This document shows positions 22,289 through 51,141 of a stretch of DNA of 64,000 nt, piece by piece. Made by a program: the position numbers and the translations under genes. Within the stretch, counting starts at the first letter, position 1, and every line of letters starts with the position of its first letter. The notes under the pieces are model-generated. The model was not told the DNA's origin and did not search any database. It saw only the letters and a list, made by a program, of their open reading frames with translations. This DNA comes from Oscillospiraceae bacterium (lineage in GTDB: Bacteria; Bacillota; Clostridia; Oscillospirales; Oscillospiraceae): NCBI GenBank assembly GCA_902761635.1, contig CACWLG010000005.1:24819-88818 (forward strand), written 5' to 3'.

Positions 22289-22317
22289 TTGAAACAGGGA
22301 CCGGGTTGTGATATAGT
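22289..22317 (+). promoter_or_regulatory. Sigma-A-type promoter of the giant adhesin gene
   Basis: TTGAAA-17 nt-TATAGT with a TGn extended -10 element. The leader to the ATG at 22444 is about 120 nt. Confidence 0.5.
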
Positions 22318-22443
22318 AAATTATGTAAAGCTATGTAATGCGTATTGGCTGAACGAACTGGAATATTTTACCTGTTTTTGACAATAAACGTAAAACATGG
22401 AAGACGCACCGCAGCGCCGGTGCGGATATATGAGGGACCGAAC

Positions 22444-25400
22444 ATGCGAAGCTTTGAAAAGTTAAAGGAATATCTGCAGGGGACTGCCGCGCGCAGGGCA
22501 ATTGCGTCTGTGCTGGTCGCGGCAGAGTGCCTTTCTGTTGTCGCGGTGGGACTGCCTGCCGCATATGCCGTGGAGGCAGCGCCGCTTGAGGCGGTCGAAC
22601 TGACAGACCGGACGACCAATTCGGCGCCTGCTGCTGAAGTCCCGGAGAGCGGGCAGGAGGAGACGGTGACACCGGCTGAGGCCGCCAGACTCGGTGAAGA
22701 GGCGGCGGCGAGCTTTGCAAACGAGGCCGAGCGCGCGGCGGAGGAAGCCGAACAGGCAGCCGACGAGACTGCCCGGATGCTCGGTGAGGAGCTCACGGAC
22801 GCGGTTCTGGAAGCCGCGCGGCAAAGCGCCGGGCAGGCGGAAGACGCAGCCGGCCGTGCGCGGGACGCAGCCGAAAGGGCGGCAGACGAGGCAGACTGGG
22901 CAGCGCAGGCGGTCGAGATCGCGACGCAGGAAGCGGAGCGGACAGCCGCCGAGGCACAGGAAGCCGCCGAGGAGGCAGAGCATGCAGCCCGGACGGCGGA
23001 GGAGATCGCCGAGGCGGCGCGTATGCTGGAAGAGGCAGCCATGGCCGCGCAGGAGCGCGACAGAGAGCGCAATGGAAACGAACAGCTCCAGGAAGCGGCA
23101 GAGGAGAGATCGGCAAAGCGGGAAGAGTCGAAGGATAAGACTGCCCTGTCAACGGCGACGCCGTCACCGGCCGGTGACCTTGCTGTGGTCCCCGGCAAGA
23201 CCGAACAGCAGGAAAACGCAGAGAATCAGAAAACGGATTCCGAGCAGCCCGCAGCGGCTGAGGAGATTCCGGCAGGCGTGACGCAGGATGCCGCAGAGGC
23301 CGGCGCGACGGCGGAGGTCAAGGCCGAAGAGGCCGCGCGGGCGCGGGAATACGCCACAGCCATGGCCGAAGAATATGACAGCACGTATGCTGCCGCCTTG
23401 AATGCAAGCGAACAGGCAAACCGCGCCTTTGCCGCGTCGGACCGAGCAGCCCGGGCGGCTGCGCGCGCTTGGGCAGCTGTCGCAGAGGCGGAGGAGCGCT
23501 TTGCGCAGATGCCGGGCGATGAGCAGGCAGATCAGCCTGACCGCCCGGAACCTGCGGAATACACAGATGCGGCGGAGAATAACGACACAGCGGAGAATAA
23601 CGACACAGCGGAGAACACGGACCATATGTACTATACCGACAGCGCCGTCACCGTATGGGGCGAGGTGCCTGCCGGGGTCTATGTCCAGGCCGAGAATGTC
23701 TCCGCCCGCTATCAGGATTTTGATCCGAACGCCGCAGATACCCTCACGGCAGGCGAGACCAATGCCTTCCTCAGCGACGGGAGCACTGCGGTGAAGAGCC
23801 GCCGCGTCCTGGCGGCGTATGATATCTCCCTGTCTCTGAACGGGGAGGAGTATCAGCCCGAGGCGGGCAGCCCCCTGACTGTCTACATTGCGGACCCCAG
23901 GATCCGGGAGGGTCTTGACCTCGAAGTCTGGCACATTCATGACGACGGTCTCGTCGAGCCCATCACGGATTTCACTGTGGAGGGCGGCGCTGTTCGCTTC
24001 GAGGCAGCGAGCTTCTCGGTGTATCTCGTGTGCGCTTATACCGTGGACTTCCACTGGGGCGATTATACCTACAGCATCCAGGGCGAAAGCGAGATTACCC
24101 TCAGCGAGCTCTTTGAGAAGCTCGGCGTGACAGAGATCACAGCCGCCGATGTGACCGGCGTCAGCTTCACCAATCCCGACTGCATAGGAATTGAGCAGCT
24201 TGACTCTGACTGGCTGCTTCGGTCTCGTGCGCCCTTTAACACCGAGGAGGCGCTGACTCTCACGCTGAATAACGGCGAGACAGTAGAGATCAAAGTCACG
24301 GACGCGGACGATGATGAGCCGGACGACCAGACCACAGAAAGCTACACGGTCACCTGGAAAAATGAGGACGGAACCGTCCTGGAGACAGACGAGAACGTGA
24401 CGGCAGACACGATCCCGAGCTATGACGGGGAGACACCGACAAAGACGGATGAGGAGCACAAGTGGTATTTTGCCGGCTGGATGCCGGAGATTGAAGCTGC
24501 TGCAGAGAACAGGGAATACACTGCGCAGTTTGAGCAGTGCAGGGAACTGACCATCACTGCGGACAGCAGCAGCAAGATTTTTGACAATACAGAGCTGACA
24601 AAAGAGAGCTATACGCTGACAGGAGAATTGGACGAGGGCGACAGCCTTGTGTCTGTGACTATCACGGGAACGCAGACAGAGGTCGGAAGCGCGGAAAACA
24701 TCCCGAGCGATGCGCAGCTTGTCAATGCCGAGGGCGAGGATGTCACGGGGCACTATGACATCACCTACGTCAACGGCACACTGGAGGTCAGAGAGAGAGC
24801 AATCACCATCACTGCAGGCAGCGCCGAAAAAGTCTATGACGGTGAAGCGCTGGAGGAAAAAAACTGGACGAGTACGGAGCTGGCAAACGGCGATACGATC
24901 ACTTCTGTTACAATTACAGGCTCGCAGACAAAAGCCGGCAGCTCGGATAACGTCCCGAGTAAAGCGGTCATTGTCGACAGTGACGGAAACCCCGTGACGT
25001 TGCCCTATAACATTACCTATGTAAACGGCACACTGACCGTCAATCCGCAAGGCGTCACGCTGAAGGCAAATAGTGCCACGCTGCCCTTCAACAGTGAGGA
25101 ACAGCAAGTAACCGGCTATACCTGCAGCGTGGATGGACTGAGCTTCGAGGGCGTGGAAGCGCGCGGCAAAGGTAAAGATATCAATATTTATGATGTTGAG
25201 TTCACCGGCGTTACCCTGAACGAGACGCGCGATACCACCGGAAACTATATTGTCACCGGCCTGGAAAAAGGCCTGCTGATCATTGTCGAGAATACAGGCG
25301 AGAGCGTGATCCTCCTGGAAAAGGAGCTTTCTGGCTTCAACGGAGACCTTGCAAGCTACACGATTAATGTGAACCCGGAAGGCCGGGTACTGAGCGGCGA

Positions 25401-28400
25401 GGGAAAGGAGCTTACGCTCAAGGATACCTTCAGCGGAAACCAGTCTATCGATTATGGCTCTATTGAGGTGCACAGTACGACAGACGAGAACGTTCCCTAT
25501 GACTACAGCGGCAATACCGGCACTTACACCATACCGGACGGTACGGCTGTCACCATCACCTATACCACCCGTGTGAAGGGCAATGCGGGGGAAGAGGTTA
25601 CATTCTCCAATACAGCGGTACTGGGCAGAATGGAGGATTGGACCTTTGTCGGCGGACCGACAGTCACAATCGAAAATACAGAGACTGTCACCCCGACCGG
25701 CACGGACATCTCCGGTACGGGCGGCGTCTATACCATCGAGCTGTTTGTCTATGCGCAGAATCACATGGAAGAAGGGCTTGAGGGCGCGGCCTTCCGGCTG
25801 CTGGATGGCAATATGCAGCCGATGCTGTACAGAGCCGGCGCGAATGCCGGCAAGCCCATTGTCTTCACAACGGGAGAAAAAGGGCGCGTTACCGTTCAGC
25901 TGAGCGAGGAGACCGACGGGCTGTCCATCCATAAGAATACCGTATACTACCTTGAGATGATCACGGCGCCGTATCAGATAAAGAACGGTGAATATATCTA
26001 TTATCAGAAAGACAACACGTACTACAGCTTCCTCATCACCGATGACCCGCGCTATGAATACGGCGGCGTATATGCCTACTTTAACGGCGACGTGCTGAAG
26101 GTGCGCTGCTATCCGGAGATAAATGGCGTCAACATCACCAAGCGCTTCAGCGGTAACTATACCCTGACGAAGGAGCAGCAGAATGCCATCCGCTTCATCC
26201 TGCAGAAGGAAGCGCTGGATACAGAGAGCGGCTGGGTGGATGTGGAAAGCCATGACTACAGTGAGTTCAGCTATGGCTCCTTGAACTTCAAAGTCGGCAA
26301 AGAAGGCGGGACGGAGCTGGAGGACAATGCCACTTACCGGGTGATCGAAGAAAACGTCCTTCCGACGGAGCTGGAGGGGATCATAGAAGAGAATGTTGCG
26401 GTTTCCGTTACCTATCAGCGGGAAGGCCGGCCGGTGGAGGAGGCAAGCAACGAATTCTACATTGATCCGGATGATAAGCTGGCATTCAGCTATAACCTTG
26501 CTTTTACCAACGAATACATCGATCATAAGCTGACGATCATCAAGATCGACGAAGAAAGCGGCAAAGCACTGGAGGGTGCCGACTACACGGTTTTCCCGGC
26601 TCGAGGCGGCGACGCGCTGATCACCTATACCACTGACGCCGGCGGCGGAATCACCATTCGGAGAAATGATGCCGGTGCCCAGTATGAAACCGATACCCTG
26701 TACTACGCCGTTGAGACGAAATCGCCGGAAAACTATATCCTGCCTGCAAATCCCAGAAAGGTTTACTTCTATTTCTCTGAAAACAGCAGCACGGTCCCGG
26801 CCGGACTGCCCTTTGGCGAAACGGCGACAGATTTGACGAGCTCCTATAACACGGTCACGATGGAAAATGACAGTACCAGTATTGATATCCCCGTGACTGT
26901 GGTATGGGGAATCAACGGTTCCGATGCCTGGCCGCAGGAGGTGGATCATGTCGTCATAGCGCTGTATCAGTCTGTTGGCGGCGGTGCTCCCATCCCGGTC
27001 CCGGGAGCGCAGCAGATTGTCCTGACACGGGATCAGTACTATGACACCAGAAGCTACACCGGTCTTCCTGCCTTGGAGGATGGCAAGACCATTGCATACA
27101 GCGTTGTGGAAGAGGGCATCTATACAAGCGGCAATGAGCCCATTACCGAACGGTTCGCGCGTTCCAGCAGCATCAGCGGTACCGGGTGGTATGTGGTCCA
27201 TAACCAGCCCGCTGTCAGCGTTACGATTCGGAAGGAATGGGTTGACCAGGACGGAGAGACCATAATCGGCAATACGGACAGCAAGCCTGATGTGAGCGTG
27301 GATCTCTACCGGACCACGACAGAAAGCGCCGCAGCTTCCTTTACGCGTGCCGAGCTTCTTGCGTTTTTGGCAAATGCGGAGCGTGTACGCACTGGGCTGA
27401 CGCTTTCAAAAGAAAGCGATTGGAGCATAACGGTGGATTCCCTGGAGAAGATGAAGAGCCAGGAAAAACCATACTATTATTATGCTCTGGAGAAGGTTCC
27501 GGACAACCAGGAGGACAGCTATCTTATTGTGGCGGCTGCAGAATCGGAGCCTCGGACACTGACGATCAAAAACAAGCAGACTCCCGTGACGGTTACGATC
27601 CAGGCAGACAATCTTGAAAAAACCTACGGTGATGCCGACCCGGCCTTCACATTTGAGGCGAGCAGCGTGATGGAGGAAGGCGCGTCCATTTCCGTGACCG
27701 GACCGGAGGACGGGAAGTATATCGGGCATGTTATCGCAGCCGACGGCACCGAGAAAACGATCGAGTTTACCGCTTCCCGTGTGATCGGGAAAGATGACGG
27801 CACCTATGACGATGTCGGTACCTATGTCATTACGCCGGCCGGCGATGCCATACAGTCGGGCTACCGTGTCCTGTATGAGACAGGTATTCTGACGATCAAC
27901 AAGGCTAAAGTCACAATCACCGCCGGCGCCGAGAAGACCTACGGCGAAGATAACCCTGCCTATGTCACCGTTGAGGGGCTGAAAGGCGACGATACCATTT
28001 CGTACAAAGTCAGTCGTGAGAGTGGCGAGGATGCGGGCGAGTATTCCATCACGCTGGAAGGTGAGGCGGATCAGGGGAACTATCAGGTCGATTTCGTCCG
28101 TGAAGATGAGGAAGGAAACACGTACGTTTTCACAATCAAACGCGCCAATGCAGCTATAACGCCGATAGCAGCGGAAAAGCTGTACGGGGAAGATGACCCG
28201 GAGTTTACCGCGAAGGTTACCGGCCTTGTAAACGACGACGAGCCCTCTGTTATTATCTTTGATCTGAACCGCACGCCGGGAGAGAACGTCGGTAAATATA
28301 CGATCACACCGGCATGCGAAGACGTACAGGGCAACTATAATGTGACTTATACCACGGCTGTCTTCACAATCAACCCTGCGGAACTGATATTGGAGATGGA

Positions 28401-31400
28401 GGATGCCGAAAAGACCTACGGCGATGACGACCCCGAATGGGACGTGACGATCGACGGCCTGCAGATAGGCGAAGACGAAGGGGAGCTCCGCTCCGTCCTG
28501 AATGAAGAGACGGGCGTTCGCACCTATACGTATTCCATCGAGAAAGATGAGCAAACAGTTGAACTGTTCAGCTTTACTGCGGCCCGTGCGGACGGGGAAA
28601 ATGTCGGCGAATACACAGTCACACTTTCGACCGATAGAAACCCGCAGGGCAACTATACCTTGACCAAAGCGGAACCGGGGGAACAGGGAAGCTATACGAT
28701 CACAAGCGGGTTGCTGCATATACTGAGGGCTGAACTGGATGTGAAGCCGAAGCATCAGGTCAAGGCAATTGATGTTCCGGATGATCCGCTTCTTGCCGCA
28801 GACATTGAGGGCTGGAGAAACGGCGACAACGTGGAGGAAGAAACCACGCTCGTTACTACTGAGACCAGTGAGGACGGAAAGACCATCACCCGGACATATC
28901 GGCGCGGAGAGGGAGACAAAGCGGAGACATTTACCGTCATCTCCAGCGTCAGCGACGATAAAATCGTCACCTGGACGTACAAACGCGGCGAGACGACCCT
29001 GCTCACATTCACACTCAAGCGTGACCCGGGCGAGGATGAGGGCGACTACCCTGTGACGGCGAATGGTTTGGACGCGCAGTCCAATTATGCTGTCTTCTTC
29101 GATCAGGGAACCTTCAGCATCCTGTCGATCCTGGATATTGACGTGGCGCAGCCGCTGACGGACTATGCCGACGCCGATGCCAAACCGGCTTATCACTATA
29201 CGGCCACCCTGGATCTTGAAGGGACAGGTCTGGACGAATACAACAAGAATGGGTTTGAAACCGTTGAAGGGGTTCCTACCCTCAGCTTTGTGCTGCCTGA
29301 CGAGGTCACAGCGGAGGAAATGAGAACGCTGAAGGTTCCGGCAGGCGCGAAACTGACGGTGAAGCAGAACGACGACAACAACGACTATACCACAGCCATC
29401 AGGATTGACGGCAGCCCGTATACCAATCCGGAACCTGTACCGACCTGCGTGCTTGCGTCTGCGGATACCTACCATGAAATTGCCTTTGCACACAGCCGCA
29501 TCAGCGTGCTTGTGGAGGCGAGGGCTTCTGAGAACCAGGAAGAAGACGGCGCGACGGTACTGTCCGGCAGGAAGGGCGCCGTGGGCATCCCGCGGGACGC
29601 CGACGGGAATCCGAGCGAGAACGGCCGCAAAATTAACATTGATTTCGCCGAAGAGATGCACAGCAATATCGGCTACGAGCTGCCCTCCGACAAATACTAT
29701 TCCTACCACCATGCCTCTCTGTATACCGCCCCGGCAAGCGGAAACGGAAACCCGGTAGTGACGAACATTACCGGCATTCGCTACGGAAGGTATACCAGAG
29801 AGGACGGCACCGAAGCATACAAATGGCAGTATACGTCACTCGACAGCGAGGAGTTTACGGATGTGCCCGCGGATACAAAGCTGGTACTGTTCTATCTGCC
29901 CAAGTTTGTCTGCAAGATCGGGAGCGAAAAGTTTTACAGCCTGAAAGACGCTGTGAACTATGCGAGCGAGAACGACAAGACCGCCACGATCGAGATGCTG
30001 ATCGGAGAGTATTCCATCCGGTCCGCCTCCGATGCCGTAACCATCCCTGCAGATTGCAATATCACCGTCACCACAGCAAGCGAAGGATATGAAGGTACCG
30101 GCACAGCGGTCATCGGCCGCAGCATGAGTTATACCGGCGGGCATCTGTTTATCAACAAGGGAACGCTGACCCTTGACAGCATTATTCTGGACGGCAAGGG
30201 CGTCCGGGCCACCGACGCGACCGTGCTCAACGAAGCGAATCTGACGGTCACAGGAAATGCCACGCTGCGCAATGCCATCGGCAACAACGGCGGCGCGATC
30301 TACGCGAAAGACGGCACTGTGACGGTAAGCGGCAGCCTATCCGGCAACACGGCGGCCTATGGCGGCGCTGTGTATGTCAAAGGCGGCACCGTGACAACGA
30401 CAGTGAGCGGCAAGCTGACCGGCAACAGCGCTACATACGGCGGCGCAGTGTATGTCGAAGACGGCGGCGTTGAGCTTGGCGGCATGATCGGCGGAGAAGG
30501 TCAGGCCAACACGGCCACGGGCAACGGCGGTGCGGTATACCTGAACAAAGGGGAGCTCACCCTCAACGGTTCCCTGGCAAACAATGAGGCTGCCAACGGC
30601 GGCGCGGTTTATCAAAACGGCGGCACGCTGACAGTCAGCGGCAGCATGTCCGAAAACAGCGCTACAGCCAACGGCGGCGGCGTTTACCTCAACAATGGCA
30701 CCCTCACGATAAAAGCGAGCGGCAGCGCAGCCGAAAACACGGCGACAGCCAACGGCGGCGCAGTCTATCAATCCGGCGGCACGCTGGAAAACAACGGCGC
30801 CATCAGCGGCAACTCTGCCGTGAGCGGCGGCGGCATTTATCGTGTCAATGGCACGCTGACAGTGAACGGCGTCATCAGCGGCAACAGCGCAAGCACAGAC
30901 GGCGGCGGCGTTTATTCCAACGGCGGCACGCTGAACTTGAGCGCGACTGTCAGCGGCAACTCTGCCGTGAACGGCGGCGCGATCTATGTCAGCAGCGCGA
31001 CACTGAATGTCAATGGCGGCAGGATCGGCGGCACCGAAGAAGGTGACGCGAACACGGCCACGGACAACGGCGGTGCGATCTACGCTCTGAACGCCACGAC
31101 CACAATCGGCACAGCAGTAGGTGCTGTAACACTGAGCGGCAACAGCGCAATGAACGGCGGCGCGGTCTACATGGAAGGCGGCAGTTTGAACGTCATGCAT
31201 GCAAACAGCGAGCTGACGAAAAACATAGCAACGAACGGCGGCGCGGTCTATGCCACCAGCGGCACGATTACGCTCACCAACGGAAAACTGAGCGAGAACG
31301 AAGCCGGGACGAGCGGCGGCGCGATCTACTCGGGGAGTGCTTCCGTGACAGTCGCAGCGGGCAGCCTCTCCGGAAACAAAGCCAAGCAGGGCAACGGCGG

Positions 31401-34400
31401 CGCGATCTGCAGCGAGAGCGGCACCGTGACCGTCAGCGGCGGCACACTGTCCGGCAACAGCGCCAGCAAGAGCGAAAGCACAGACAGCGGCCTCGGCCTC
31501 GGCGGCGCGATCTATGCGAGCAGCGGCACGGTGAACTACAGCGGCGGCAATATCAACGGCGGCAATATGGCAGTCAACGGCGCGGCGATTTTCGTCGGGT
31601 CGGGCATTGCCAACATCTCCGCCTCCATCACCGGCAATACCGCCTCAGCGGGCGGCGCCCTCGGCGTGGGCAGCACCAATGCCCGGCTGAACTTCAAGGG
31701 CAATGCAGAGGTCAACGGCAACAAGATGAACGGCGCGGAGAGCAATGTCTATCTTGATGTCGACTCTGAGCTTGTCATCAATGCTGACAGCCTGGGCAAC
31801 AGCAAGAAGATTGGCGTGTACGTACCTGGTGCACTGGACAGTGATCAAGTTGTCAATCACGGCGATGTCACAGCATATTTCGGCTCCTATGTATCAGCTG
31901 GTACGATCGGAAATGTTGCCAGCGTGTTCAAGAACGACCGCTTTAGTGATCTGAAGGTCGGATATGAAAACAACCGTCTCTACTGGACGAATGCGCTGAA
32001 ATACGATGTCTACTATCTATCCAGCTACAGTGGCCAGTTCCCGCCCACCACTAACTATCAAGCGACTCCAAGTAAAAAGGTGTGCTCAGGCAAGAGCTAT
32101 GTGCCCCGCACGAGAGAGAGCGATATCTATGATCTTGTGATGGCCATGAAGCTGTATGAGGCCCACAACACTGATTTTACAAACCAAGTCGGCAGCAATT
32201 ACGCCTCCCTTGCAGTCTATGCCTATACCTTCTCCGACAAGGCGATGGATAACACTTTTGGAAATTATCTGAAACGTGTGGAATGGGATGCTTCAGCGCG
32301 CAAATGGATGTTTACCAAGCAGAATGGCGAGAAAGCGCCTGCCGATACTTCCAAGCTTGTGATCTTCTATTCATCCCCGGCCTATCTCACCATCGTCAAC
32401 AACAACGAAAATGGTTTGACGCTGACCCTCTCTGAAATAGACGTACTGGGCTATAATGCAGCAGAGGGGCTTTACGGTTACGTTACGGCGCAAAACGGCG
32501 CGACTGTGCAGACTCTGAGAGCTCTTACAGCGGATGATCTTACACTGAAGGCGGGCGACTCCATCAAGCTGATGTTGCCCGGCGCACAGAAACAGAACAT
32601 TACCCTGAAGGGAACAATGAGCGGGGAAGGTGCGACCTATAGCTTCAAGGGCGGCGATGGGCAAGTAAGTGATACAGTCAGTGGTACAGATTTTGAACTG
32701 AATGGCAAGCTCTATGAGAGCGACGCTGCGGCAGAATTGCTTTTCGGCAGTGAACTGCCCATTTGCAAGATCGGGAATGAGCCTTTCTCTACCCTTAAGG
32801 CAGCGATGGCATACGCCAAGGCGCAGAAAACAGCAACCGGAAACAACACTTATAAGATCGAGATGCTGGTGGACTATCTGGTTCCTGCAACTGACGTACT
32901 GGATATCCCTGAGGGATACGACATCACCTTTACCACTGCCGACAAAGACGCAGAGACCCTGCCCTACACAGGCAACGGTACCCGGGCCACCCTCAGCCGC
33001 GACACGGGCAACACGGGCGCCTCTGTCACAGCTAAAAAAAGCACGCTGACGGTCGAGGAACTGGCGTTTGACGGCAGATCCCTGACGGCAGGCGGCAAGG
33101 GTGGCGCGATAAGCACAGAAAACTGCACCACCGTCACCATTAAGAACTGTGATTTCAAGGGCTACCGCGCAGGCAACGGCGGTGCGGTCTATGTGGAAAA
33201 CAAGAGTGCAGGCAGCAGCCTGACGGTAGAGGACTGCACATTCTACAACTGCCAGACTAACGCCGACGTGGATAAGGCGGGCGGCGGCGCAATTTGGACA
33301 ACGGCCAGGGAGCTGTATGTGAGGGACTGTACATTTGACTTCTGCGCCTGCCTGCAAGGCAGAGCTCAGGCCGGCTCTGTCTTCCATAATATTCAGGCGA
33401 ATTGGTTTGCTGATTCCAAGACTGTGATTTCCGACTGCACCTTCAGTAATTCCTATGCGGTCGGTGGCTCCGGCGGTACGGTCGAATCCGACGCTTATGA
33501 CGTTACCATACAGCGTTGCACCTTTGAAGGCAGCTATACCAACAAGCCCGGCGGCTCCGGCGGCGCGATCAATACCTATGCAAACAATGAGGCTAATACC
33601 ACGAAATATTGCATAATGAAGGTAATCGATTGCGCTTTTGATAACTGCAGCGCAAAAAACGGTGCTGCCATGGGCGGTGCGGTTCGCTGCTCTACGCATG
33701 ACCTGATTTTGCGAGGATGCATTTTCCGGAACTGTCAGGGTGTAACCGGCGGTGCAGTTGCCATGACCAACACCAACGCTAAGAAAGTCGAGATATATGG
33801 CTGCACCTTTGAAACCTGTATTGCCAACGGCAACGGCGGTGCGGTAAGTGCGCCTGCAGGCACCTTGATTGTAGGCGTGGAAGATACTGAGGTAGAAGAC
33901 TACCAGACAACGTATCTTGATACCGATAAGACGGAGAAGGACGGCAGCAACCACTTCACCGGCTGCGCTGCAAACCGCGGCGGCGGCATTGATAACGCCA
34001 AAAACGATTCGGCCGTTACGATGCAGAACGTCCACTTTACCGACTGTGAAGCACGAAGCAGCAGCGGCGGCGCGCTGTATACCCAGGCAAAAACACTGTC
34101 CATCACCGGTACATCAAATACTTTCACGAATTGCACCGGAAATGGCAACGGCGGCGCGGTGTATCAGAACAGAAATGTTGACGGCAGCATTGTTACGCTG
34201 AATAATTGCGTGTTCACCGGCTGCGAGGCAAAAAACAACGGCAATGGCGGCGGCATGTATGCAAACGCCAGGACGATGCGAGTCAATTATGACAAGGATA
34301 ACGAGTCTGCCGTGGAGGGGGCAAAAAGCTCTTTCAAAAACTGCACGGCGGCCAACGCAGGCGGCGGCCTGTATCATGACTATGCTGGCACGCTTACCAT

Positions 34401-37400: not shown

Positions 37401-40400
37401 TCTCTTCACGTCTGCGCATAATGTCTGTGGCGATATGGATTTCAACAGAACGGGTATGGCACGCGTGACAGTGAAAGCCGGCGAGTCCAAAACCGCTGTC
37501 CTGCCTGCCACATTGCATCTGCATGACTACACAGTGACGGAGGTTCTGAGCGAGCAACAGCAGGCGGACTATACGACCACAGTGCAAAAGGATGGCAAAT
37601 CCTACGTTTTTGCTGATCCCATGACCGTTACCGGGCAACTGGGCGAGAATGTCGGCAGAGAGAACCCCTCGGACGAGAGTCAGGGTGGAGAGAATTCCTC
37701 CAGCCTTTCGGACCTGGTATTTATCAACACCCGTATGACCGGCGATCTCACCATCTCCAAGACAGTGAATAGCAGCGTGGAGGAGGATAAAGGGGAAAGC
37801 TTCTCCTTCAAGCTGACTCTGGACCCCAGTAAAACAAACCCAAAGGACAAAATCAGCAAGACCTGTTCTGTCCTCAGAAAAGACAGCGAAGGCGTGGAAA
37901 CGGAAGGCACGCTGAGCTTTACGCAGGGCGTAGCCGAGTTTACCCTGAAGGACGGACAATCCATCACATTCCTCAGCCTGCCCACGGATCTGCCATACAA
38001 GGTGGAGGAGATTCTCACCGACAGACAGACAATGCACGTGCGTACCTTTGTGAGAAAGGATGAGGGGGCGGACAGCTACTCCACAAGCCAGACTGGCAGG
38101 ATCGGCGACTATAAGAAGACTGTGACGGAGGAGGGCGTCGCGAAGACAATCTATGCCTCGGACATTTACTTCACCAACAGCTTCCTGGAGATCGTCTGCA
38201 AGATCACCAACCGCAGCCGTGCCATCCTGTACTACAAGGATGCGAGCGGCACGCTGCAGCCCGCCGTTTTCAGCCATCTGGAAGAAGCCTTCGATTTGAT
38301 CAACAGCGGCGGCGTCAGAACCTCGACCGGCGGCACAGCCTCCGGCAATATGCGCATCGAGATGGTTGTTCCGGCGTACACGATGGAGAGAACGGCGACG
38401 CTCAACAGCGGAAAAACCGTGATCCTGTCCACTGCGCTGCCGACAGACAGTGATTTCCCCTACAACAACGGTGTGGATGACGGAGTCGGCATCTCTTTGG
38501 TTTCCCGCGGCTTTACCAAGGGAAGCATGATCGTGGACAGTGGTTCCCTGACTCTGGACAAGATCACCCTGGACGGCAGTGCTGCGGCGGATGAACCAGT
38601 CACCGGCAGCGCTGACGGCGGCATTGTGCAGGTGGCAGACGCTGTCAGACTCACGGTGAACAGTGCAGCGACCCTGCAGAATTCTGCTGTGACAGGCAGT
38701 GAGGAAAGCGGCGGTGCTGTTGGCAACGGCGGTGCAGTCTATTTGTCTGCCGGAGCTTCCCTGACCATGAACGGAACCATCCAAAACTGCTCGGCAGCAA
38801 ACGGCGGCGGCATATATGCGGCGGACGGCTTTACCACCATAACCCTTACCGGACACATTGCCAACTGCGAGGCAGCCGGCGACGGCGGCGCCATCTGCGC
38901 GGAAGCCGGTACGAGCGTCAATCTCAACGCAGGCACGCTGCTGACCGGCAACAAAGCGGCAAAAGACGGCGGCGCGGTCCGCACCGGCACAAACCTCGTC
39001 CTGAGAGGCACTGTCGGCGGAACCGAAGTCAAGCAGGGCAACACAGCCGGCAACGAAGGCGGCGGCATCTACATGGGAAGCAATGCCATGCTTACCATGT
39101 ACGCGGGCAGCGAAATCACCGGCAACAGCGCAAAGAACGGCGGCGGCCTGTTTGCTCGCTATACGACCCGTATCGCCGGCGGCAGCATTGCCGGCAATGA
39201 AGCAAAAGCGGTCAACGGAGAAGGCGGCCTGGGCGGTGCACTCTATGTAACGGAGGACGGCGTTGTTACGGTTTCCGGCCTGGCAAGTCTGGCGGATAAC
39301 CGTGCCGTCCGGGGCGGCGCGGTGTACGACCGCGGCAGCGTCGCCATGAACGGCGGCAGCATGACCGGCAACGTCGCCACAGAGAAGGGCGGCGCGGCCT
39401 ATGTCGCGGATACCACGGCAGAGGATGGCAGCGTGTCCGGGCACAGCTTCTCCATGACCGGCGGCAGCATCAAGGCCGGGAACAAGTCCCCGGAGGGTGC
39501 GATTTCCACCGAGGCGCATGCCGTGCTGAACTTCTCCGGCAACTGCGATGTCAGCGGAAACACCTCTTCTGACGGCGAAACTGTCATGAACGTCTACCTC
39601 GGTTATGACAGCAACGGCATTATCCGGACCACCGGCCTTGGCGCAAGCGCCAATGTCGGCATCTATGTGGCCGACGGTGAACCGGAGACCGATAATCCCG
39701 ATGACCCGGCTTATCGGGAAGACCACAGCAACCACCCGATTTACGCGGATCACGGCGTTGCCGGCAGAAACTTCGGCACCTATACCGGCAGCAATCTCAG
39801 CGGGGCCAGACTGAACAAATTCGTAAATGACCGCGAAACCGGTCTTACCGGCATGAACGGTGAACAGATCAATGCAGGCGACTATTATGTCGCATGGCAG
39901 GGCCTGGGTCTGAAACTGAAGGTGACACAATATCTCCCGAAGCTTGACGAGAGCGGAGAAGTGGAGCTGGATGAAGAGGGCAACCCGGTCCTTTCGGGAA
40001 CCGTTGTTCCGGTCCAGAATGCAAGCTTTACCTTCACCAATATCACAAACGCCACGGAGGAAAATCCGGGTGTGCTGGTCTGGAGCGGCAAGAGCGATGC
40101 AGCGGGTCTCGTTTCGATCCCGTGGGGCGGTGAGGAGAAAGAAGGCGGCACTGCTGCAAGCTTCAAGCCAAACACCACCTACAGACTTGACCAGACGACT
40201 GCAGACACCAGGACGGTTCTCCCGGCAGGCCACTGGACTGTCACCATCTCGAGAGACAACAGTGTGACCTGGAGCGTGACGGAATCCGAGGAGGCGAACG
40301 TCGACCGTATCTTCAATATTTATAATATCAGCTCAACGGAGACGCCCAAGCTCGGTGAAACCTTCGGCCTGAACAATGACGTGAAGCCGACGATGACCTT

Positions 40401-42909: not shown

Positions 42910-42921
42910 ACAACACAGCAC

Positions 42922-42947
42922 GCCCCCGGCCTTTCTGGGCCGGGGGC
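42922..42947 (+). terminator. GC-rich hairpin 13 nt after the giant-gene stop (weak T-tract)
   Basis: GCCCCCGGCC / GGCCGGGGGC form a 10-bp stem with a 6-nt loop. It is followed by AATTCTAT, so termination may be partial. Confidence 0.45.
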
Positions 42948-42969
42948 AATTCTATACCTGCGCCGGGGC

Positions 42970-42998
42970 TTGCATATCGGCTGGAAATATGGTATATT
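42970..42998 (+). promoter_or_regulatory. Sigma-A-type promoter of the pilin operon
   Basis: TTGCAT-17 nt-TATATT with a TGn extended -10 element. Confidence 0.55.
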
Positions 42999-43045
42999 CT
43001 ACTATGTATCAATATCTGTTTAAGGAAGGGCAGGAGGAGAAAAAG

Positions 43046-43849
43046 ATGCAGGCGATCAGGAGAAAACTAAGATCCCAGCGCGGCGCGTCGATTACCTTTG
43101 CCCTGCTGATTTTCCTCGTGTGCGCAGTGGTCGGCTCGGTGGTGCTGACCGCAGCAACGGCGGCTTCCGGCCGCATGAGCAGACTGGCTGAGATGGATCA
43201 GCGCTACTATAGTGTGACATCCGCTGCAGACCTTCTGGCGAAGGAATTGTCAAACAAAAAAATTAGCATTGTCAGGACACAAGAGTATACAGACAGCGTA
43301 AGTACAACCTACACGCTCAGTGTTGATGAGAATGGGGAGGAGATTATCAATGCCGGGACGCCCGTATCAAGCAGAACAGACCCCGAATACAGTACAAAAA
43401 TCAACGAGCAGGAGGTCGTGGGGACTTGGACGGCAAGCAGCTTTCTGACCAAACAGGCGGTCAGACTGATGTATGGAGACAAGAACTTCAATACAGAAGC
43501 GGCTTTTGATTTCTCCTTAAAAAACGGGAATGCCGATGAAGGAACATTCACGCTGTCCCACGAAAACAACGAGGCTCTGGGCATCAACGGGAACTATAAG
43601 CTCAAGAAGGATGGAACGCTGATGCTGATCCTCAAGGATACAATCGGGGAGGATCATTACACGATCACCGTGTCCTTAAAGCCGCATATCAGGGAGTGGC
43701 CTGATTCTGTAACAGATAAACTGCCAATCGAGATAAAAAACAATGAGAGCGACAGCGGATACACCGAGATTGCACAGGAGAAGACAGTACTCTATAAGTA
43801 TTCGGAAATATACTGGACATTAAGCAGCATTTCGACGGGAGATGAGTGA
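43046..43849 (+). CDS. PilX/ComGG-like minor pilin (non-canonical leader)
   Basis: The ATG at 43046 follows GGAGGAGA. The N-terminus MQAIRRKLRSQRGASITFALLIFLVCAVVGSVVL is PilX_N-like: Arg-Gly followed by a hydrophobic helix, with no Glu at +5. Confidence 0.6.
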   Translation: MQAIRRKLRSQRGASITFALLIFLVCAVVGSVVLTAATAASGRMSRLAEMDQRYYSVTSAADLLAKELSNKKISIVRTQEYTDSVSTTYTLSVDENGEEIINAGTPVSSRTDPEYSTKINEQEVVGTWTASSFLTKQAVRLMYGDKNFNTEAAFDFSLKNGNADEGTFTLSHENNEALGINGNYKLKKDGTLMLILKDTIGEDHYTITVSLKPHIREWPDSVTDKLPIEIKNNESDSGYTEIAQEKTVLYKYSEIYWTLSSISTGDE

Positions 43850-44195
43850 AGTGAAAAAAAGAGTGATTGACAAGCTCCGCGCTCAAACCGGTGAAAGCAT
43901 TGCGGAGGTGCTGATCGCGCTGCTGGTCTCTGCCGTCGCACTCATGCTTCTGGCCAATATGATTACCTCCGCAACCAGTATCATAACAGGCAACCGAGAG
44001 GCATTCGACAACTATGTCACCGCCGGAAATGCCCTCATGGCGCATGAGGGGACTGCGAGCAGCGGAACGGTTACGTTTAAAAGCGATAATACAGAAATGA
44101 AACTGACCGATGATCTTTTATCTTCCTCAAAAATAACAGTTACGTATTACGCAAACACAAACAGAAATATAGTCAAGTCGTATGTTAAAAAATGA
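43842..44195 (+). CDS. Small pilin-like protein
   Basis: 117 aa. The leader ..RAQTG/ESIAEVLIALLVSAVALMLLANMI has Glu at +5. The start overlaps the upstream stop. Confidence 0.6.
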   Translation: MSEVKKRVIDKLRAQTGESIAEVLIALLVSAVALMLLANMITSATSIITGNREAFDNYVTAGNALMAHEGTASSGTVTFKSDNTEMKLTDDLLSSSKITVTYYANTNRNIVKSYVKK

Positions 44196-44207: not shown

Positions 44208-44744
44208 ATGAACAGACTGAGAATGCGATTAAAGAACAATAAGGGCTTTACACTTGCAGAGCTTTTGATTACCGTGTTGATTTTGCTTATGGTTTCGACT
44301 GTCGTCGCAGCAGGAATGCCATCGGCTGTCAACGCACTGGGAAAGGTGGTGGATGCCGCCCATGCGGAATCTCTGTTTGCGACGACATATACCGCCCTGC
44401 GTGACGAACTTTCAACAGCGATTCCGAATCGGACGATCACGGCGAGCGGGAAGAGCATCACCTATACAGACAGTGACGGCATCGTATCAAAAATCGAATC
44501 AAAGGATGACGGCATTTATATTACGAAACCCGCTGCTGCTGAATCAGGCAACGAAAGACTTCTCATTTCAAAGGTCGCAGCAACAGAAAACCTGTATATG
44601 ACGTTTCAGGATATAAAATACAGCAGCGGAATCGTTGAGATCACAGATCTGGCTGTGAATAACAGCAAGACAGGCAATACTGTAAACAACTTGAAAAAAG
44701 TGATGATCCGAATTGTGGGCTATGAAGCCATTAAAGCGGCTTAG
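44208..44744 (+). CDS. Type IV prepilin (canonical N-terminal cleavage/methylation motif)
   Basis: 178 aa. MNRLRMRLKNNKG/FTLAELLITVLILLMVSTVV is a class III signal peptide with Phe at +1 and Glu at +5. Confidence 0.8.
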   Translation: MNRLRMRLKNNKGFTLAELLITVLILLMVSTVVAAGMPSAVNALGKVVDAAHAESLFATTYTALRDELSTAIPNRTITASGKSITYTDSDGIVSKIESKDDGIYITKPAAAESGNERLLISKVAATENLYMTFQDIKYSSGIVEITDLAVNNSKTGNTVNNLKKVMIRIVGYEAIKAA

Positions 44745-47021: not shown

Positions 47022-47043
47022 GCACACAGCAAAACACAGGCAG

Positions 47044-47068: not shown

Positions 47069-47107
47069 TGTTGCAATGGCTTATACAGAAAAAGATGACA
47101 AAATGTA

Positions 47108-47136
47108 AACAAAACTCTTGCACAAGAGAATCACCT
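47108..47136 (+). promoter_or_regulatory. Sigma-A-type promoter of the pilin-like gene/pilD/pilMNO unit
   Basis: TTGCAC-17 nt-TAAAAT with a TGn extended -10 element. Confidence 0.5.
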
Positions 47137-47194
47137 GTGATAAAATGACTATGGAATTTTATGACGTTGCACATGCTGTGCAAAAGGGTCAACT

Positions 47195-47956
47195 ATGAAA
47201 GCACCACAAGGGTCAAAACTGCATAGTGAGCGGGGAATATCCTGGGTCATCGCCGTATTGCTGGTTCTGGTGATCGTGCTTGCCATCACAAGTCTGATCC
47301 CCAGCTATAGAAAATACCAGGAACAGGGCAAAGAAGTGGCCTGCGCCACGGCGCTGGATACGGCGCGGCGGCAGCTTGCGGCTAATTTCATGTTCAACGG
47401 GTTTGATAACGACTCTGCCGAGGAGGCCAAAGCCTTTGTCACCTATGTCATGAACGGCTGGGACGATCTCTGTCCCGCCGGCGGCAGCGTCTATGTCGTC
47501 CCAAAAGCGAACAGCCCCATGGACTGGGAAATCATCTGCGGCCTGCACTGCTCGGACAGTCGGCTCTGCACCCGCCTCAATGCCTACAACGTGCGCAGTC
47601 AGCTCCAGGAGGCATTGCTCAAGGAGCGCAACAAGGGCAATCCCTTCCCCGAGAGCCTGCCCTACACCCTGCACAGCAAGCCGCATACCGCCTGGCTTAC
47701 GGATGCGGATGTCGGACTCAAGCGCGGCACAAGGCTGACGGAGGGGCAGGAGGGCATTGTCGCCTATTATTCTGTGGTGGGCCACAGTGATTTCGGCGCG
47801 GACTCCGGCATGAAGAAAGGGGAAATGTGGTATTTCACCTTTGCCGATGAGGAACACTGCGCCAACTGGAGCTATCACGACGAATGGACCGGAGACAGCT
47901 ACTGGAATGTGACGGGTACGGATTATGAGTATCTGTCCGACATGGTCATTCAGTAA
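47195..47956 (+). CDS. Pilin-like protein with a degenerate leader (no Glu5)
   Basis: 253 aa. ..SERG/ISWVIAVLLVLVIVLAITSLIPSYRKYQEQGKEVACATAL resembles a pilin alpha-1 helix, including the IPxYxxY segment. Confidence 0.5.
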   Translation: MKAPQGSKLHSERGISWVIAVLLVLVIVLAITSLIPSYRKYQEQGKEVACATALDTARRQLAANFMFNGFDNDSAEEAKAFVTYVMNGWDDLCPAGGSVYVVPKANSPMDWEIICGLHCSDSRLCTRLNAYNVRSQLQEALLKERNKGNPFPESLPYTLHSKPHTAWLTDADVGLKRGTRLTEGQEGIVAYYSVVGHSDFGADSGMKKGEMWYFTFADEEHCANWSYHDEWTGDSYWNVTGTDYEYLSDMVIQ

Positions 47957-47990: not shown

Positions 47991-48788
47991 ATGTCCATAT
48001 GGAGCGACAGGGGCCTGCTGATTTACTGCTGCGTCATGGCCTTCTGCGTGGGCGCGGTGTTCGGCTCCTTCCTCAACTGTGCCGCCTGGCGCATCGCCCA
48101 CGGGGAATCCTTCCTCGGCGGGCACAGCCGCTGTCCGCACTGCGGGCATGAGCTTGGCATGCTTGATCTGGTGCCGATCCTGAGCTGGCTGTTCCTGCGC
48201 GGGCGCTGCCGCTACTGCGGTGAAAGGATCTCCGTGCGCTATCCGCTGACGGAGCTTGCCTTTGCCGTGCTGACGCTGCTGTGTCTGCTGCGCTTTGACC
48301 TCACGATCCTCTGCCTGCGCAACTGGATCTTTCTCGCCTGCCTCTTCTGCCTTTCGCTGGTGGATCTGGAGTGCTATACGATCCCGGACGGCTGCCTGCT
48401 GGTTGCGGCGGGCGCCTGGGTCGCGGCCCTGCCATTCCTGCGGCCCGGCTGGGCGGAGATCACACGCTCGGTCCTGGCAGGCCTGAGCTTCGGCGGCGGC
48501 ATCCTGCTCATGAGCGTCGTGATGGATAAACTCCTGGGCAAGGAGAGCCTCGGCGGCGGAGACGTGAAGCTCTTTGCTGTGGTCGGGCTCTATCTCGGCT
48601 TTGCGGGCGGCCTGTTTACGGTGCTGCTCTCGTGCGTGCTGGGGCTTCTCTTTGCCCTGGCGCAGGCGCAGCGGGGCAGAGCCGGCCAGCCCATCCCCTT
48701 TGGGCCCTCCATCTCCCTGGCCGCAGCGCTGATGCTGCTGTTCGGGCAGGGCATCATACAGTGGTATACCGGCCTTCTTGGCCTTTAA
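47991..48788 (+). CDS. pilD: Prepilin peptidase (A24 family)
   Basis: The ATG at 47991 follows GGAGGGGG. Contains the zinc-binding motif CPHCGH..CRYCGE, GGGDVKLF (catalytic Asp), and multiple TM segments. Confidence 0.9.
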   Translation: MSIWSDRGLLIYCCVMAFCVGAVFGSFLNCAAWRIAHGESFLGGHSRCPHCGHELGMLDLVPILSWLFLRGRCRYCGERISVRYPLTELAFAVLTLLCLLRFDLTILCLRNWIFLACLFCLSLVDLECYTIPDGCLLVAAGAWVAALPFLRPGWAEITRSVLAGLSFGGGILLMSVVMDKLLGKESLGGGDVKLFAVVGLYLGFAGGLFTVLLSCVLGLLFALAQAQRGRAGQPIPFGPSISLAAALMLLFGQGIIQWYTGLLGL

Positions 48789-48871: not shown

Positions 48872-49894
48872 ATGGCAAAAACCATTTTAGGTGTGGATTT
48901 CGGCTATGACAGCCTGAAGCTGGCATTGGTCAGCGGCAAGCAGGTACGCAAGACTGCCGTGATACCCATGCCGAACAATCTGATTCGCGAGGGTCGCATC
49001 ATCTCTTCCGAGACTATGGGCGAGCTGATTCGCAAAACGATGAAGGAGCATGGCATCCGCTGCGGACAAGCGGCGGTGGCCCTGGCAAACGAGACGGTCT
49101 TTATCCGCAGCGTGACCATGCCGCTGATGACAATCGACCAGCTCAACTATAACCTGCCCTTCGAGTTTCGCGATTACATCACCGATGAGATGAAGGACTA
49201 CCTCTTTGACTATGCGGTGGTCTCCACCTCCGAAAAGGACCCCGACAGTGAGGGAGAGAACGAAGCGGACAGCAGCGGCCCGGTGATGGAACTCATGGCG
49301 GTTGCGGCCCCAAAATCCCTGATCGAGGAGACGCGGGAGTCCCTGCACCGCGCAGGCCTGAAGCTCATCAAGGCGGCGCCCACGGTGTGTGCCTACCAGG
49401 CGCTGATCCGGGCGATCGGCGGCTCGGAAGGGGAGACGCCGCAGGAGTACTGCATCCTCGACCTGGGCTTCCAGGCCATCCGTATGTACATGTTCCGCGG
49501 CGACCGGCACATGGTCACCCGCGTACTGGAGCTCGGCATGAACAGCCTGGACCAGGTCATTGCGGAGGCCTACTCCGTCGACGTCCACCTTGCTCATACC
49601 TATCTGCTGAACAACTATGAGGACTGCCAGAGAAAGGACTATTGCATGAACGCCTACGGCACCATCACGGTGGAGCTGATGCGGGCGCTGAATTTCTATC
49701 GCTTTTCCAACCCTGACAGCCACCTGGAGGATATCTGGATCTGCGGCGGCGGGGCCTGCATCAAGCCGCTGCAGCAGAGCATCGCCGAGACGCTGGATCT
49801 TCATATCCACACCGCGGGAGAGCTGCTTCCCAACGGGATCGCACTGGAGGATGATTATGAGCTGCTCCAGGCGATCGGCATTACAATGGATTGA
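48872..49894 (+). CDS. pilM: Type IV pilus assembly protein PilM (actin-like ATPase fold)
   Basis: MAKTILGVDFGYDSLKLALV.. and ..ILDLGFQAIRMYMF.. are actin-fold phosphate motifs. The position upstream of pilN/pilO fits. Confidence 0.8.
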   Translation: MAKTILGVDFGYDSLKLALVSGKQVRKTAVIPMPNNLIREGRIISSETMGELIRKTMKEHGIRCGQAAVALANETVFIRSVTMPLMTIDQLNYNLPFEFRDYITDEMKDYLFDYAVVSTSEKDPDSEGENEADSSGPVMELMAVAAPKSLIEETRESLHRAGLKLIKAAPTVCAYQALIRAIGGSEGETPQEYCILDLGFQAIRMYMFRGDRHMVTRVLELGMNSLDQVIAEAYSVDVHLAHTYLLNNYEDCQRKDYCMNAYGTITVELMRALNFYRFSNPDSHLEDIWICGGGACIKPLQQSIAETLDLHIHTAGELLPNGIALEDDYELLQAIGITMD

Positions 49895-49900
49895 TCGGGG

Positions 49901-50548
49901 GTGAAGGCTGTGGCTCTTGCCATCAATACAAAGAACAATAAAAAAAGCGGCGTCAAGTTCCGTCGGCAGATGCCCACCAAGCGTGTGATCAATCTGGCCA
50001 CCGTGGGCGAGAAGAAGACGCACTTCGGACTCGCGCTCCCGGGCATCATCCTGATCCTGATTGCCGCTGTCGTATTCAGTAAGTTCCTGGTCATCGACCG
50101 CTTTACCGAGGTCACAAACGCCCGGCGTCAGGTCTCCGAACTGCAGACCAGGCTGAACGAGGGCTATGCGGAGCTGGCGGACTTTGATGATCTCGCTGAG
50201 CTCTATGCCCACTACACCTATTCCGGCTTCACCAACGAAGAGCGCACGCGCACAGACCGCACGGAGGTGCTCAACCTGATCCGCAACATGATCCTGCCCT
50301 ATGCCGAGGTCAGCTCCTGGACGATCAGTGGAAACCAGCTCACCGTCGAGATGGTTGGCGACACCCTGCAGCAGATCAACCTCATCGTCCAGCAGCTTGA
50401 GCAGCAGGACTTGGTGGACTTCTGCACGGTGAACACAGCCAATACCGACGACAATACGCGCGGGAACAACAACGCCGCAGAGTTCAGCTTTGTTAAGGCA
50501 CGTGTCATCGCCTATCTCAATTCCGGGACGGAGGTGGACAGAAAATGA
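49901..50548 (+). CDS. pilN: PilN-like pilus assembly protein
   Basis: GTG start. 215 aa with a basic N-terminus, a single TM segment (LALPGIILILIAAVVF) and a coiled coil, as in PilN. Confidence 0.65.
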   Translation: MKAVALAINTKNNKKSGVKFRRQMPTKRVINLATVGEKKTHFGLALPGIILILIAAVVFSKFLVIDRFTEVTNARRQVSELQTRLNEGYAELADFDDLAELYAHYTYSGFTNEERTRTDRTEVLNLIRNMILPYAEVSSWTISGNQLTVEMVGDTLQQINLIVQQLEQQDLVDFCTVNTANTDDNTRGNNNAAEFSFVKARVIAYLNSGTEVDRK

Positions 50549-51141
50549 AAGCTTTCAGCCGAAGCTTTACGCTGAAGGAAAAAATCCTTCTGCTCCTGCT
50601 CAGCCTGGTCCTGATAGGCCTTGCCTATTATCAGTTCGTTGATCAGCCTGTGCGTTCAGCACTGGTGCAGGCCCAGGCCGAGGCGGACTCTCTGTCCATG
50701 GAGCTGACCGCTGTGAACGCCAAGCTTGCAACAATGCGCAGCATGCGTGCCGAGCTTGATGATGTCACCGCCGGCGGCAAAGCCTCTGAAATGGGCAGCT
50801 ACAACAACAGCAAGGCCGAGATCGCCATGCTGAACGATGTCCTGAGTGATGCGCTGCAATACTCCATCACCTTTGCCAATGTCACCCGCAGCGGGGATCA
50901 GATCCGCCGCAACTTCACGCTGCAGCTCACGGCGGACAGCTATGAGAGCATGGAACAAATCATCAATTCCATCAACGAAAGCCATTACCGCTGTCTGATC
51001 GGGGATCTGCATTGCAGCGCAGCCCGTGAAAAATACGTGCTTGACGGCAACATCGCTGTCGATGCAACTGCCACCTTCTATGAGACCATGGTGGGCGGAA
51101 CGCCTGACGCGGGCCTTCCCGAGAGCAGGCCGGCCGCCTGA
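50545..51141 (+). CDS. pilO: PilO-like pilus assembly protein
   Basis: 198 aa with a single TM segment (ILLLLLSLVLIGLAYY) followed by a coiled coil. The start overlaps the pilN stop. Confidence 0.65.
   Translation: MKAFSRSFTLKEKILLLLLSLVLIGLAYYQFVDQPVRSALVQAQAEADSLSMELTAVNAKLATMRSMRAELDDVTAGGKASEMGSYNNSKAEIAMLNDVLSDALQYSITFANVTRSGDQIRRNFTLQLTADSYESMEQIINSINESHYRCLIGDLHCSAAREKYVLDGNIAVDATATFYETMVGGTPDAGLPESRPAA

Follow-up and report, generated by a model that had tools for sequence, protein, structure and literature searches.

The DNA analysed here is a 64-kb stretch of an Oscillospiraceae bacterium (contig CACWLG010000005.1 of assembly GCA_902761635.1; herein referred to as the window, in whose positions the coordinates of the giant, o1–o5 and pil genes are given) that encodes a secreted protein of 6,821 amino acids (aa), the giant, directly upstream of a cassette of four minor pilin genes, o1–o4. 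We consider it probable (roughly 0.6) that the giant is a PilY1-like adhesin carried as cargo at the tip of a monoderm type IVa pilus and that it is the dedicated partner of the o1–o4 pilins. This reading is built on gene architecture, family-defining domains, conserved adjacency to the cassette, natural gene fusions and co-divergence, all of which are observed directly, and from these we infer the tip location, docking partner, adhesive function and ligand of the giant. The genes at the centre of the argument are as follows.

22444 (ATG) to 42909, + strand: giant, an uninterrupted 20.5-kb open reading frame (ORF) of 6,821 aa
43046 to 43849, + strand: o1, a PilX/PilK-like minor pilin without E5; no Pfam match, kept in related loci
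43842 to 44195, + strand: o2, a small minor pilin recognized by its G/ESIAEVL motif; no Pfam match
44208 to 44744, + strand: o3, a minor pilin with KG/FTLAE; Pfam N_methyl and TIGR02532
44748 to 47021, + strand: o4, a 757-aa modular pilin with a prepilin motif; Pfam N_methyl

The single long ORF described in an initial annotation, which was made from the sequence alone, stands as given (an alternative TTG start lies at 22345), and it is not an assembly artefact, because partial copies identical to the giant occur in the independent cattle-rumen assemblies L001, L002 and L133.

Full-length relatives of o4 number in the hundreds, and a profile built from 40 of them yielded 79 loci from species-representative genomes, nearly all of which are rumen or gut metagenome-assembled genomes (MAGs) labelled as Oscillospiraceae, Ruminococcaceae, Lachnospiraceae, Butyrivibrio, Blautia, Mogibacterium, Erysipelotrichaceae or Coriobacteriia; the one cultured carrier is Oribacterium sp. 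NK2B42 (L068). Hidden Markov models (HMMs) made from the window proteins recover the order o1-o2-o3-o4 in essentially every one of the 79 loci. Sixty-three non-redundant loci were assessable, either because a giant was found or because both flanks reached 2.5 kb or more, and in 50 of these (79%) a giant ORF on the same strand either abuts the cassette or is fused to o4: the giant lies upstream and ends just before o1 in 34, lies downstream and starts just after o4 in 12, and forms one ORF with o4 in 4. The gap between giant stop and o1 start in the upstream type has a median of ~68 nt and spans 30–150 nt across the 34 loci. Most upstream giants run beyond the 10-kb flank at >2,300–2,750 aa (the complete ones measure 2,433 and 2,681 aa), and the remaining ~430 kb of flanks hold only one or two other ORFs of at least 1,500 aa. 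A loss of synteny in relatives had been set beforehand as the observation that would speak against a link between the giant and its neighbouring pilins; the opposite is seen, and the proposed link is borne out by this adjacency together with the in-frame fusions and the co-divergence described below.

Genomes can hold several such modules, given that the MAG RUG12424 contains two different giant-plus-cassette loci (L020 and L032) and that L017 (4185–12391) carries a full o1–o4 set followed by an o2-o3-o4 set and then by a 1,655-aa ORF containing the NT domain, one of the two domains (NT and CT) that define the giant family.

No other observation argues as strongly for a physical partnership of o4 and the giant as the natural, in-frame o4::giant fusions in L048 (2,948 aa), L061 (>4,138 aa), L070 (>4,126 aa) and L027. 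Each fusion ORF opens with the o4 body, its prepilin motif intact, after which the invariant end of o4 (HYGDWPxPE..VN) runs directly into the NT domain; neither the signal peptide of the giant nor runs of N are present in any of the four, and the final domain of L048 is CT-like (HMM score 57). In a rough neighbour-joining tree of o4, the fusions fall at three or more separate places among the downstream-type loci, which suggests repeated fusion events. As gene-fusion evidence, these ORFs argue for a physical or functional link between o4 and the giant, and the fused pilins of more than 4,000 residues are, to our knowledge, larger than any known pilin.

The o4 protein itself consists of a pilin helix, immunoglobulin (Ig)-like domains, a GLUG-type beta-helix and the invariant C-terminal HYGDWPxPE motif. 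In its AlphaFold2 (AF2) model, computed from 40 sequences with a predicted local distance difference test score (pLDDT) of 86, a long pilin helix and a pilin head are accompanied by Ig-like domains and a beta-helix, and the last eight residues are disordered. The sole matches to o4 in the Protein Data Bank at E <= 0.001 are to the GLUG-type domain of streptococcal IgA1 proteases (7uvl, 6xja), at low template modelling scores of 0.23–0.28, and the similarity between the beta-helices of o4 and the giant is marginal (E = 0.002). In L057, L063, L074, L077 and L081, o4 is enlarged to 1,400–2,100 aa by internal duplication of the Ig/beta-helix part, each duplicated copy ending in a HYGDW-type motif; three of these five loci have no adjacent giant.

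The pilus machinery to which this module would belong is encoded on both sides of the giant gene.

47195 to 47956, + strand: o5, a membrane-anchored, Cys-rich protein with a transmembrane (TM) helix only, not demonstrably a pilin; travels with pilD–pilO
47991 to 48788, + strand: pilD, prepilin peptidase; Pfam A24_N_bact and Peptidase_A24, with a gene call in L133
48818 to 49894, + strand: pilM; Pfam PilM_2
49901 to 50548, + strand: pilN-like gene, by position and conservation; no Pfam match
50545 to 51141, + strand: pilO-like gene; Pfam T2SSM
6543 to 10592, − strand: pilC (6543–7751), pilT (7807–8859) and pilB (8880–10592); Pfam T2SSF, T2SSE and MshEN

The assembly proteins of a monoderm type IVa pilus are all represented, PilB, C, T, D, M and O being recognized by Pfam and PilN by position. 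The order first read from the DNA, in which four pilin-like genes are followed on the same strand by pilD, pilM, pilN and pilO, is upheld, as is the placement of pilB-pilT-pilC upstream on the opposite strand; trmD-GNAT, rsmA and ppdK lie between the latter genes and the giant gene.

Comparison with the near relative L004 separates this machinery from the giant and its pilins. The proteins o5, PilD, PilM, PilN and PilO are 86–96% identical between the two loci, and the DNA from 47200 rightwards is 90–98% identical, whereas o1–o4 are ~70% identical and the C-terminal 700 aa of the giant 45% identical, with a mosaic relationship elsewhere. The break in identity is abrupt and falls at the o4/o5 border (47100–47200). 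Because the giant and o1–o4 diverge together while o5–pilO stay alike, we regard them as one variable module on a conserved machine, and the pattern suggests a module that has been replaced or is hypervariable, with a sharp right-hand edge and a left edge out of reach.

These observations also bear on whether co-residence would be a sufficient account of the locus, such that the giant and the pilins are fast-evolving surface genes that are co-regulated or co-transferred and have independent functions. The hypervariability of both the giant and the minor pilins relative to flanking genes would agree with this, as would the hairpin and promoter-like site that part the giant from o1 in the window, the 13 of 63 cassettes without a giant and the many giants without a cassette. 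We nevertheless judge it distinctly unlikely: order and strand are fixed, the gaps are confined to 30–150 nt in 34 loci, the giant takes two alternative positions and always abuts the cassette, and o4 has been fused to it in frame repeatedly. Co-residence alone is insufficient because fusions in which the signal peptide is lost are not expected from an island of independent genes.

Under the favoured reading of the giant as a tip-borne adhesin, the o1–o4 module would prime the type IVa pilus that pilD-M-N-O and pilB-T-C build and would form its cap, and the giant would be held on this tip complex, most probably via o4. Docking via o4 is favoured because o4 is covalently continuous with the NT domain of the giant in several lineages. 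As it extends, the pilus would take the giant across the thick wall and display it well away from the cell, and PilT-driven retraction would pull the cell onto whatever the stalk binds; the presence of PilT, and with it of a retractile machinery, counts in favour of this reading.

The giant is rich in G, T, A, S and N and can be divided as follows.

22444 to 22575, + strand: Sec-type signal peptide, aa 1–44, ...GLPAAYA/VEA (sequence inspection)
23581 to 24054, + strand: NT domain, Ig-like and family-specific (HMM from relatives, E = 1.3e-10)
26527 to 26766, + strand: SpaA (prealbumin-like) domain; Pfam PF17802
27484 to 29283, + strand: MBG_2 repeat region with six copies and approximate borders; Pfam PF18676 (E = 6e-61) and self-similarity
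29644 to 41343, + strand: mosaic of internally repeated modules (Pfam, self-similarity)
33106 to 33606, + strand: right-handed beta-helix, best stretch within the mosaic (Pfam)
37741 to 38022, + strand: DUF7601 within the mosaic (Pfam)
40741 to 42906, + strand: C-terminal module of ~700 aa, 30–45% identical to giants upstream of other cassettes
42526 to 42900, + strand: CT domain, a terminal CnaB/SpaA-type Ig domain without a sorting signal (HMM score 155)

The layout is therefore a signal peptide, an acidic coiled-coil-like linker, the NT domain, a repeat stalk, tandem CnaB/SpaA-type Ig domains and the CT domain, which ends 2 aa before the stop. Residues 1–1680 are unique by self-similarity, and ~1700–6300 form a mosaic of internal repeats; the stalk is very long and fast-evolving and comprises beta-helix, MBG and Ig repeats. 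Pfam matches are confined to MBG_2 (six), SpaA (aa 1362–1441 and two at the end), the right-handed beta-helix and DUF7601, and an NCBIfam scan of the giant returned nothing beyond these.

Both ends of the protein agree with what the initial annotation had read from them. The N-terminus, MRSFEKLKEYLQGTAARRAIASVLVAAECLSVVAVGLPAAYA/VEA, is of Sec type by inspection and does not fit the class III prepilin motif G/FTLxE (G-1 and E+5), and signal peptides resembling it occur in the relatives L045, L049 and L136. The C-terminus reads ...IIQELKAETTAP up to the stop codon and so ends ...KAETTAP; inspection of this end found no LPXTG motif, hydrophobic segment or charged tail, and Pfam and NCBIfam scans of the giant for anchors gave no LPXTG, TM, SLH, LysM or choline-binding match. 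The sole LPxTG-like string is an internal LPYTG at aa 3505, which we judge irrelevant.

The absence of an anchor is a property of the family. All upstream giants end in a CT domain of ~125 aa that lies at most 46 residues from the stop, none with LPXTG, and 34 database homologues of the last 300 aa of the window protein likewise lack a sorting signal, the exception being P0156, an ordinary LPXTG-type MSCRAMM that has one. A cryptic sorting motif, L.PE.T.P, in the tail after CT in the nearest clade was considered and rejected, as it is not kept across the family. Downstream giants begin with a signal peptide followed by an NT domain of ~160 aa (consensus Y.ItVsY..aGIP.dA.L.V.E...FDI....G.E.QP...V.V...VvHF...FSVYa), and the NT HMM matches upstream, downstream and fused giants, the window protein included. 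The last ~700 aa of the window giant align with other upstream giants, and the rest aligns only as shuffled repeats. A word-indexed search with its last 300 aa returned mostly gene fragments, and a homologue search with its first 1,600 aa gave a single partial homologue, so that orthologues are untraceable from the N-terminal end. A HMMER scan of 1.84 billion representatives with the C-terminal profile found 616 clusters at E <= 1e-30, among them dozens of proteins of 3,000–7,751 aa in which the whole profile is matched once, at the extreme end; the window protein is hence a typical large member. The window giant accordingly belongs to an NT...CT family, whose members have CT at the extreme C-terminus, an NT domain and either a Sec signal peptide, as in the window, or a fusion to the o4 pilin.

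A Sec-exported protein without an anchor and with very large folded domains could also be a secretion substrate, for which the pilus would act as a type II-secretion-like piston that pushes the folded giant through peptidoglycan, after which it would be released or attach to the surface by another route, and would not be a stable part of the tip. There is precedent in that secretion of the VWA protein BsaC of Clostridium perfringens needs the pilin PilA3 and that peptidoglycan is reported to block folded proteins larger than ~25 kDa (PMC11580942); a VWA protein gene lies 1.2 kb upstream of the giant, and CT-bearing giants occur away from cassettes, as expected for substrates acting in trans. 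This explanation seems unlikely to us, given that the o4 fusions, which have no signal peptide, join giant and pilin covalently, an arrangement that fits display and not release, that the co-divergence concerns o1–o4 and not the machinery, and that PilT is present.

The AF2 model of the last 300 aa of the giant (pLDDT 90) consists of tandem CnaB/SpaA Ig domains, with fold matches to BcpA, SpaA, a SpaC C-terminal fragment and RrgC. K196 and E254 (numbered along the 300-aa query), the Lys and Glu typical of an isopeptide triad, are invariant in the CT region. On the strength of this predicted fold and of the invariant isopeptide-type Lys and Glu, the terminal domains are probably mechanically robust and suited to load. 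The same resemblance, of the CT region to sortase-pilin stalks and to SpyCatcher-type CnaB domains, would be shared by a fibre that assembles itself through intermolecular isopeptide bonds or strand exchange, with the pilins serving as a base or being irrelevant, and BsaA of C. perfringens does polymerize by strand exchange and isopeptide bonds (PMC11580942). We hold such a fibre to be highly improbable: the giant has no sortase signal, its modelled terminal domains are complete with no missing strand, and the invariant K and E, with a frequent N/D, fit ordinary intramolecular bonds.

Returning to the giant as a partner of o1–o4, the gap between the two is itself of interest, together with the promoter of the giant gene.

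22289 to 22317, + strand: sigma-70-like promoter TTGAAA-17-TATAGT, matching at 10/12 positions, with a TG extension
42922 to 42947, + strand: GC-rich hairpin without a T-run, −27.9 kcal/mol, also present in L004
42970 to 42998, + strand: weak promoter-like site TTGCAT-17-TATATT with TG before the −10, from the sequence; below the scan threshold

The promoter proposed upstream of the giant is confirmed by this match. The hairpin and the second promoter, proposed to follow the giant gene, are present as sequences, but neither is called by consensus scans: the terminator scan passes over the hairpin because it has no T-run, and the promoter scan passes over the site (−35 hexamer TTGCAT at 42970–75, a 17-nt spacer, −10 hexamer TATATT at 42993–98) because its −35 hexamer matches at only 3/6 positions. 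The giant stop and the o1 start are 136 nt apart in the window, the ribosome-binding site AGGAGG of o1 lies at 43032–37, and 42700–43300 is more conserved with respect to L004 than the coding DNA on both sides. A conserved terminator after the giant gene was considered and rejected, as hairpins occur there in only about a third of loci.

Several observations weigh against the giant as a dedicated tip adhesin of this pilus, and the support for its display at the tip is genomic throughout. Co-transcription is not assured in the window, because a stable hairpin and a possible separate promoter stand between the giant and o1. Thirteen of the 63 cassettes have no giant within reach, and there is no major pilin gene in the 64-kb window. 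The CT domain is kept in the fused relatives, so that it is not simply a module for docking to o4. In the PilK/PilY1 model, the last ~10 residues of the adhesin complete the PilK sheet; a short, loosely conserved tail does follow the CT domain in giants, but the corresponding idea, that o1 is missing its last beta-strand when a giant is present, was rejected, as the strand (T.ItWtl..i) is kept either way. Because o1 retains its last strand in all categories, strand donation of the PilY1 kind at o1 is not indicated.

The reverse link, from giant to cassette, is also partial. Among 45 metagenome loci sampled by the CT region, those with informative flanks comprise 13–14 with o1–o4 directly downstream, 2 of the downstream type and about a dozen without a downstream cassette, whose 5' ends are out of reach. 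For the complete giant L091, 3 kb of upstream and 7.6 kb of downstream sequence are free of a cassette, and the complete giant L101 has none in its much shorter flanks; of the complete giants in the representative library, L138 is followed by o1–o3, and L136, L135 and L137 have no cassette next to them. Overall, about half of the ~30 CT-ending ORFs with informative flanks adjoin a cassette, which fits either paralogous cargoes that act in trans or a wider family of adhesins, part of which is linked to pili. One sub-clade of CT-giants seems to lie on or beside mobile or phage-like elements: in L086 (10689–20528) and L135 (10786–12171) the CT-giant is followed by a DUF6076 gene with phage-like genes nearby, and in L086 genes for a primase, a terminase and a portal protein come after it as well.

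That a tip adhesin can be linked to minor pilins is already known. The genes of PilC/PilY1, MshQ and CpaL, all of them large tip proteins, adjoin minor-pilin genes or are fused to them (PMC13533445), PilC/PilY1 is proposed to be carried by the tip complex that the minor pilins form (PMC10191384, PMC13533445), and non-pilin tip adhesins have so far been described only for diderms (PMC10191384, PMC13533445). Like PilC/PilY1 and MshQ, the giant is a large, Sec-exported non-pilin encoded beside core minor pilins, and it shares with PilC/PilY1 the combination of a variable adhesive region and a conserved C-terminal part. It is no homologue of PilY1, as neither Pfam nor NCBIfam matches it to the C-terminal beta-propeller domain of PilC/PilY1; there is no relation in sequence or fold, the C-terminus being of CnaB/SpaA Ig type and not a beta-propeller, and the giant is 5–6 times larger and its host a monoderm. 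CpaL/TadG of Tad pili resembles the fusions of L048, L061 and L070 in having a pilin-like N-terminus, a large middle and a conserved extreme C-terminus, but the window giant is unfused, CpaL has ~600 aa as against 2,900 to >4,100 aa in the fusions, and the pilus class is another.

Among monoderm systems, PilB and PilC of Streptococcus sanguinis carry adhesive modules on minor pilins of a type IVa pilus (PMC10191384, PMC6916266), in which o4 and the fusions are alike; the window giant differs in having a Sec signal peptide in place of a prepilin leader, and the S. sanguinis grafts are single domains (vWA, lectin), whereas the giants are stalks of several thousand residues. The tapirins of Caldicellulosiruptor are far smaller than the giant and structurally unrelated, and the abstract describing them mentions neither a fusion nor a linkage to minor pilins. 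BsaC of C. perfringens is likewise a Sec-exported clostridial protein whose crossing of the wall depends on a type IV pilin (PMC11580942), but it has ~70 kDa, is encoded in a sipW-bsaA-bsaB-bsaC operon and not with minor pilins, and is released. BcpA, SpaA, SpaC and RrgC share with the giant CnaB/SpaA Ig domains and an isopeptide-type Lys and Glu at the C-terminal end; unlike these sortase pilins and MSCRAMMs, the giant has no LPXTG motif, membrane-spanning tail or sortase context. Giant proteins of Omnitrophota are also adhesin-like and encoded in conserved proximity to type IV filament genes (10.1101/2023.11.21.568195); they differ in their many TM regions, SecA-like domains, gspD/E/F-type neighbours and diderm hosts, and belong to unrelated families.

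No description of a giant/minor-pilin system was found in the literature searched, which covered GLUG pilins, giant partners of minor pilins, Gram-positive type IV pilus tip adhesins and rumen pili, in agreement with the earlier statement that no pilus-associated adhesin of this kind had been described, and this giant family of Sec-exported, anchorless fibre adhesins is undescribed. The novelty lies in the family itself and its size, in its occurrence in monoderms, in a terminal module that resembles sortase pilins but has no sorting signal, and in the fusions that yield giant pilins. For the wider proposition we see the chances as evenly balanced: that monoderm type IVa pili of many rumen and gut Clostridia (and of some MAGs labelled Coriobacteriia) carry a dedicated giant cargo adhesin on a four-pilin tip module, that this adhesin is a Gram-positive counterpart of PilY1 evolved from sortase-pilin-like blocks and has become, in several lineages, one pilin chain longer than 4,000 residues, and that the giant and o1–o4 form an exchangeable specificity cassette.

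Target adhesion by Gram-positive type IV pili and the passage of very large folded proteins through a thick wall have been named as open problems (PMC6916266). The pairing of cassette and giant, with the pilin fusions, would offer a concrete and testable answer. It would assign a role to hundreds of unannotated genes of 3–8 thousand codons that usually break metagenome assemblies, and a swappable specificity module in fibre- or cell-attached rumen bacteria would contribute to strain-level variation. The cultured Oribacterium sp. NK2B42 provides an experimental entry point.

Some related loci carry further variations on these genes. In L085 (6205–13648), an intact o1–o4 cassette is preceded by three ORFs that end in CT (382, 137 and 449 aa) and by an incomplete copy of o1, with a serine recombinase nearby; a search for DNA repeats among the three ORFs, as might accompany cassette shuffling, found no long ones, and the ORFs could be rearrangement remnants or silent copies. 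In L137 (11884–15825), the genes after a CT-giant of 3,720 aa encode a coiled-coil protein, a type I signal peptidase (S26) and a further large secreted protein, an arrangement that recalls the bsa operon with its sipW gene. In L022, L023, L029, L034, L043 and L079, the gene after pilO encodes a small pilin; in the window this place is taken by an MBOAT-family gene (51231–52757).

The neighbourhood of the giant gene in the window includes genes that the initial annotation had left unmentioned. Directly upstream on the + strand (17801–21177) are a secreted DNA/RNA non-specific endonuclease with an Ada Zn-binding domain and the VWA protein referred to above, which has 758 aa, a signal peptide and a C-terminal TM helix. 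A PIN7-domain gene (21241–22206, − strand) is divergent from the giant, with 22177–22317 as the common promoter region. On the 3' side of the pilus genes, a signalling cluster on the + strand (55255–62242) comprises a MatE-HATPase-like fusion, a SpoIIE-type phosphatase, an anti-sigma-type HATPase, an adenylate/guanylate cyclase and a GAF-ABC ATPase.

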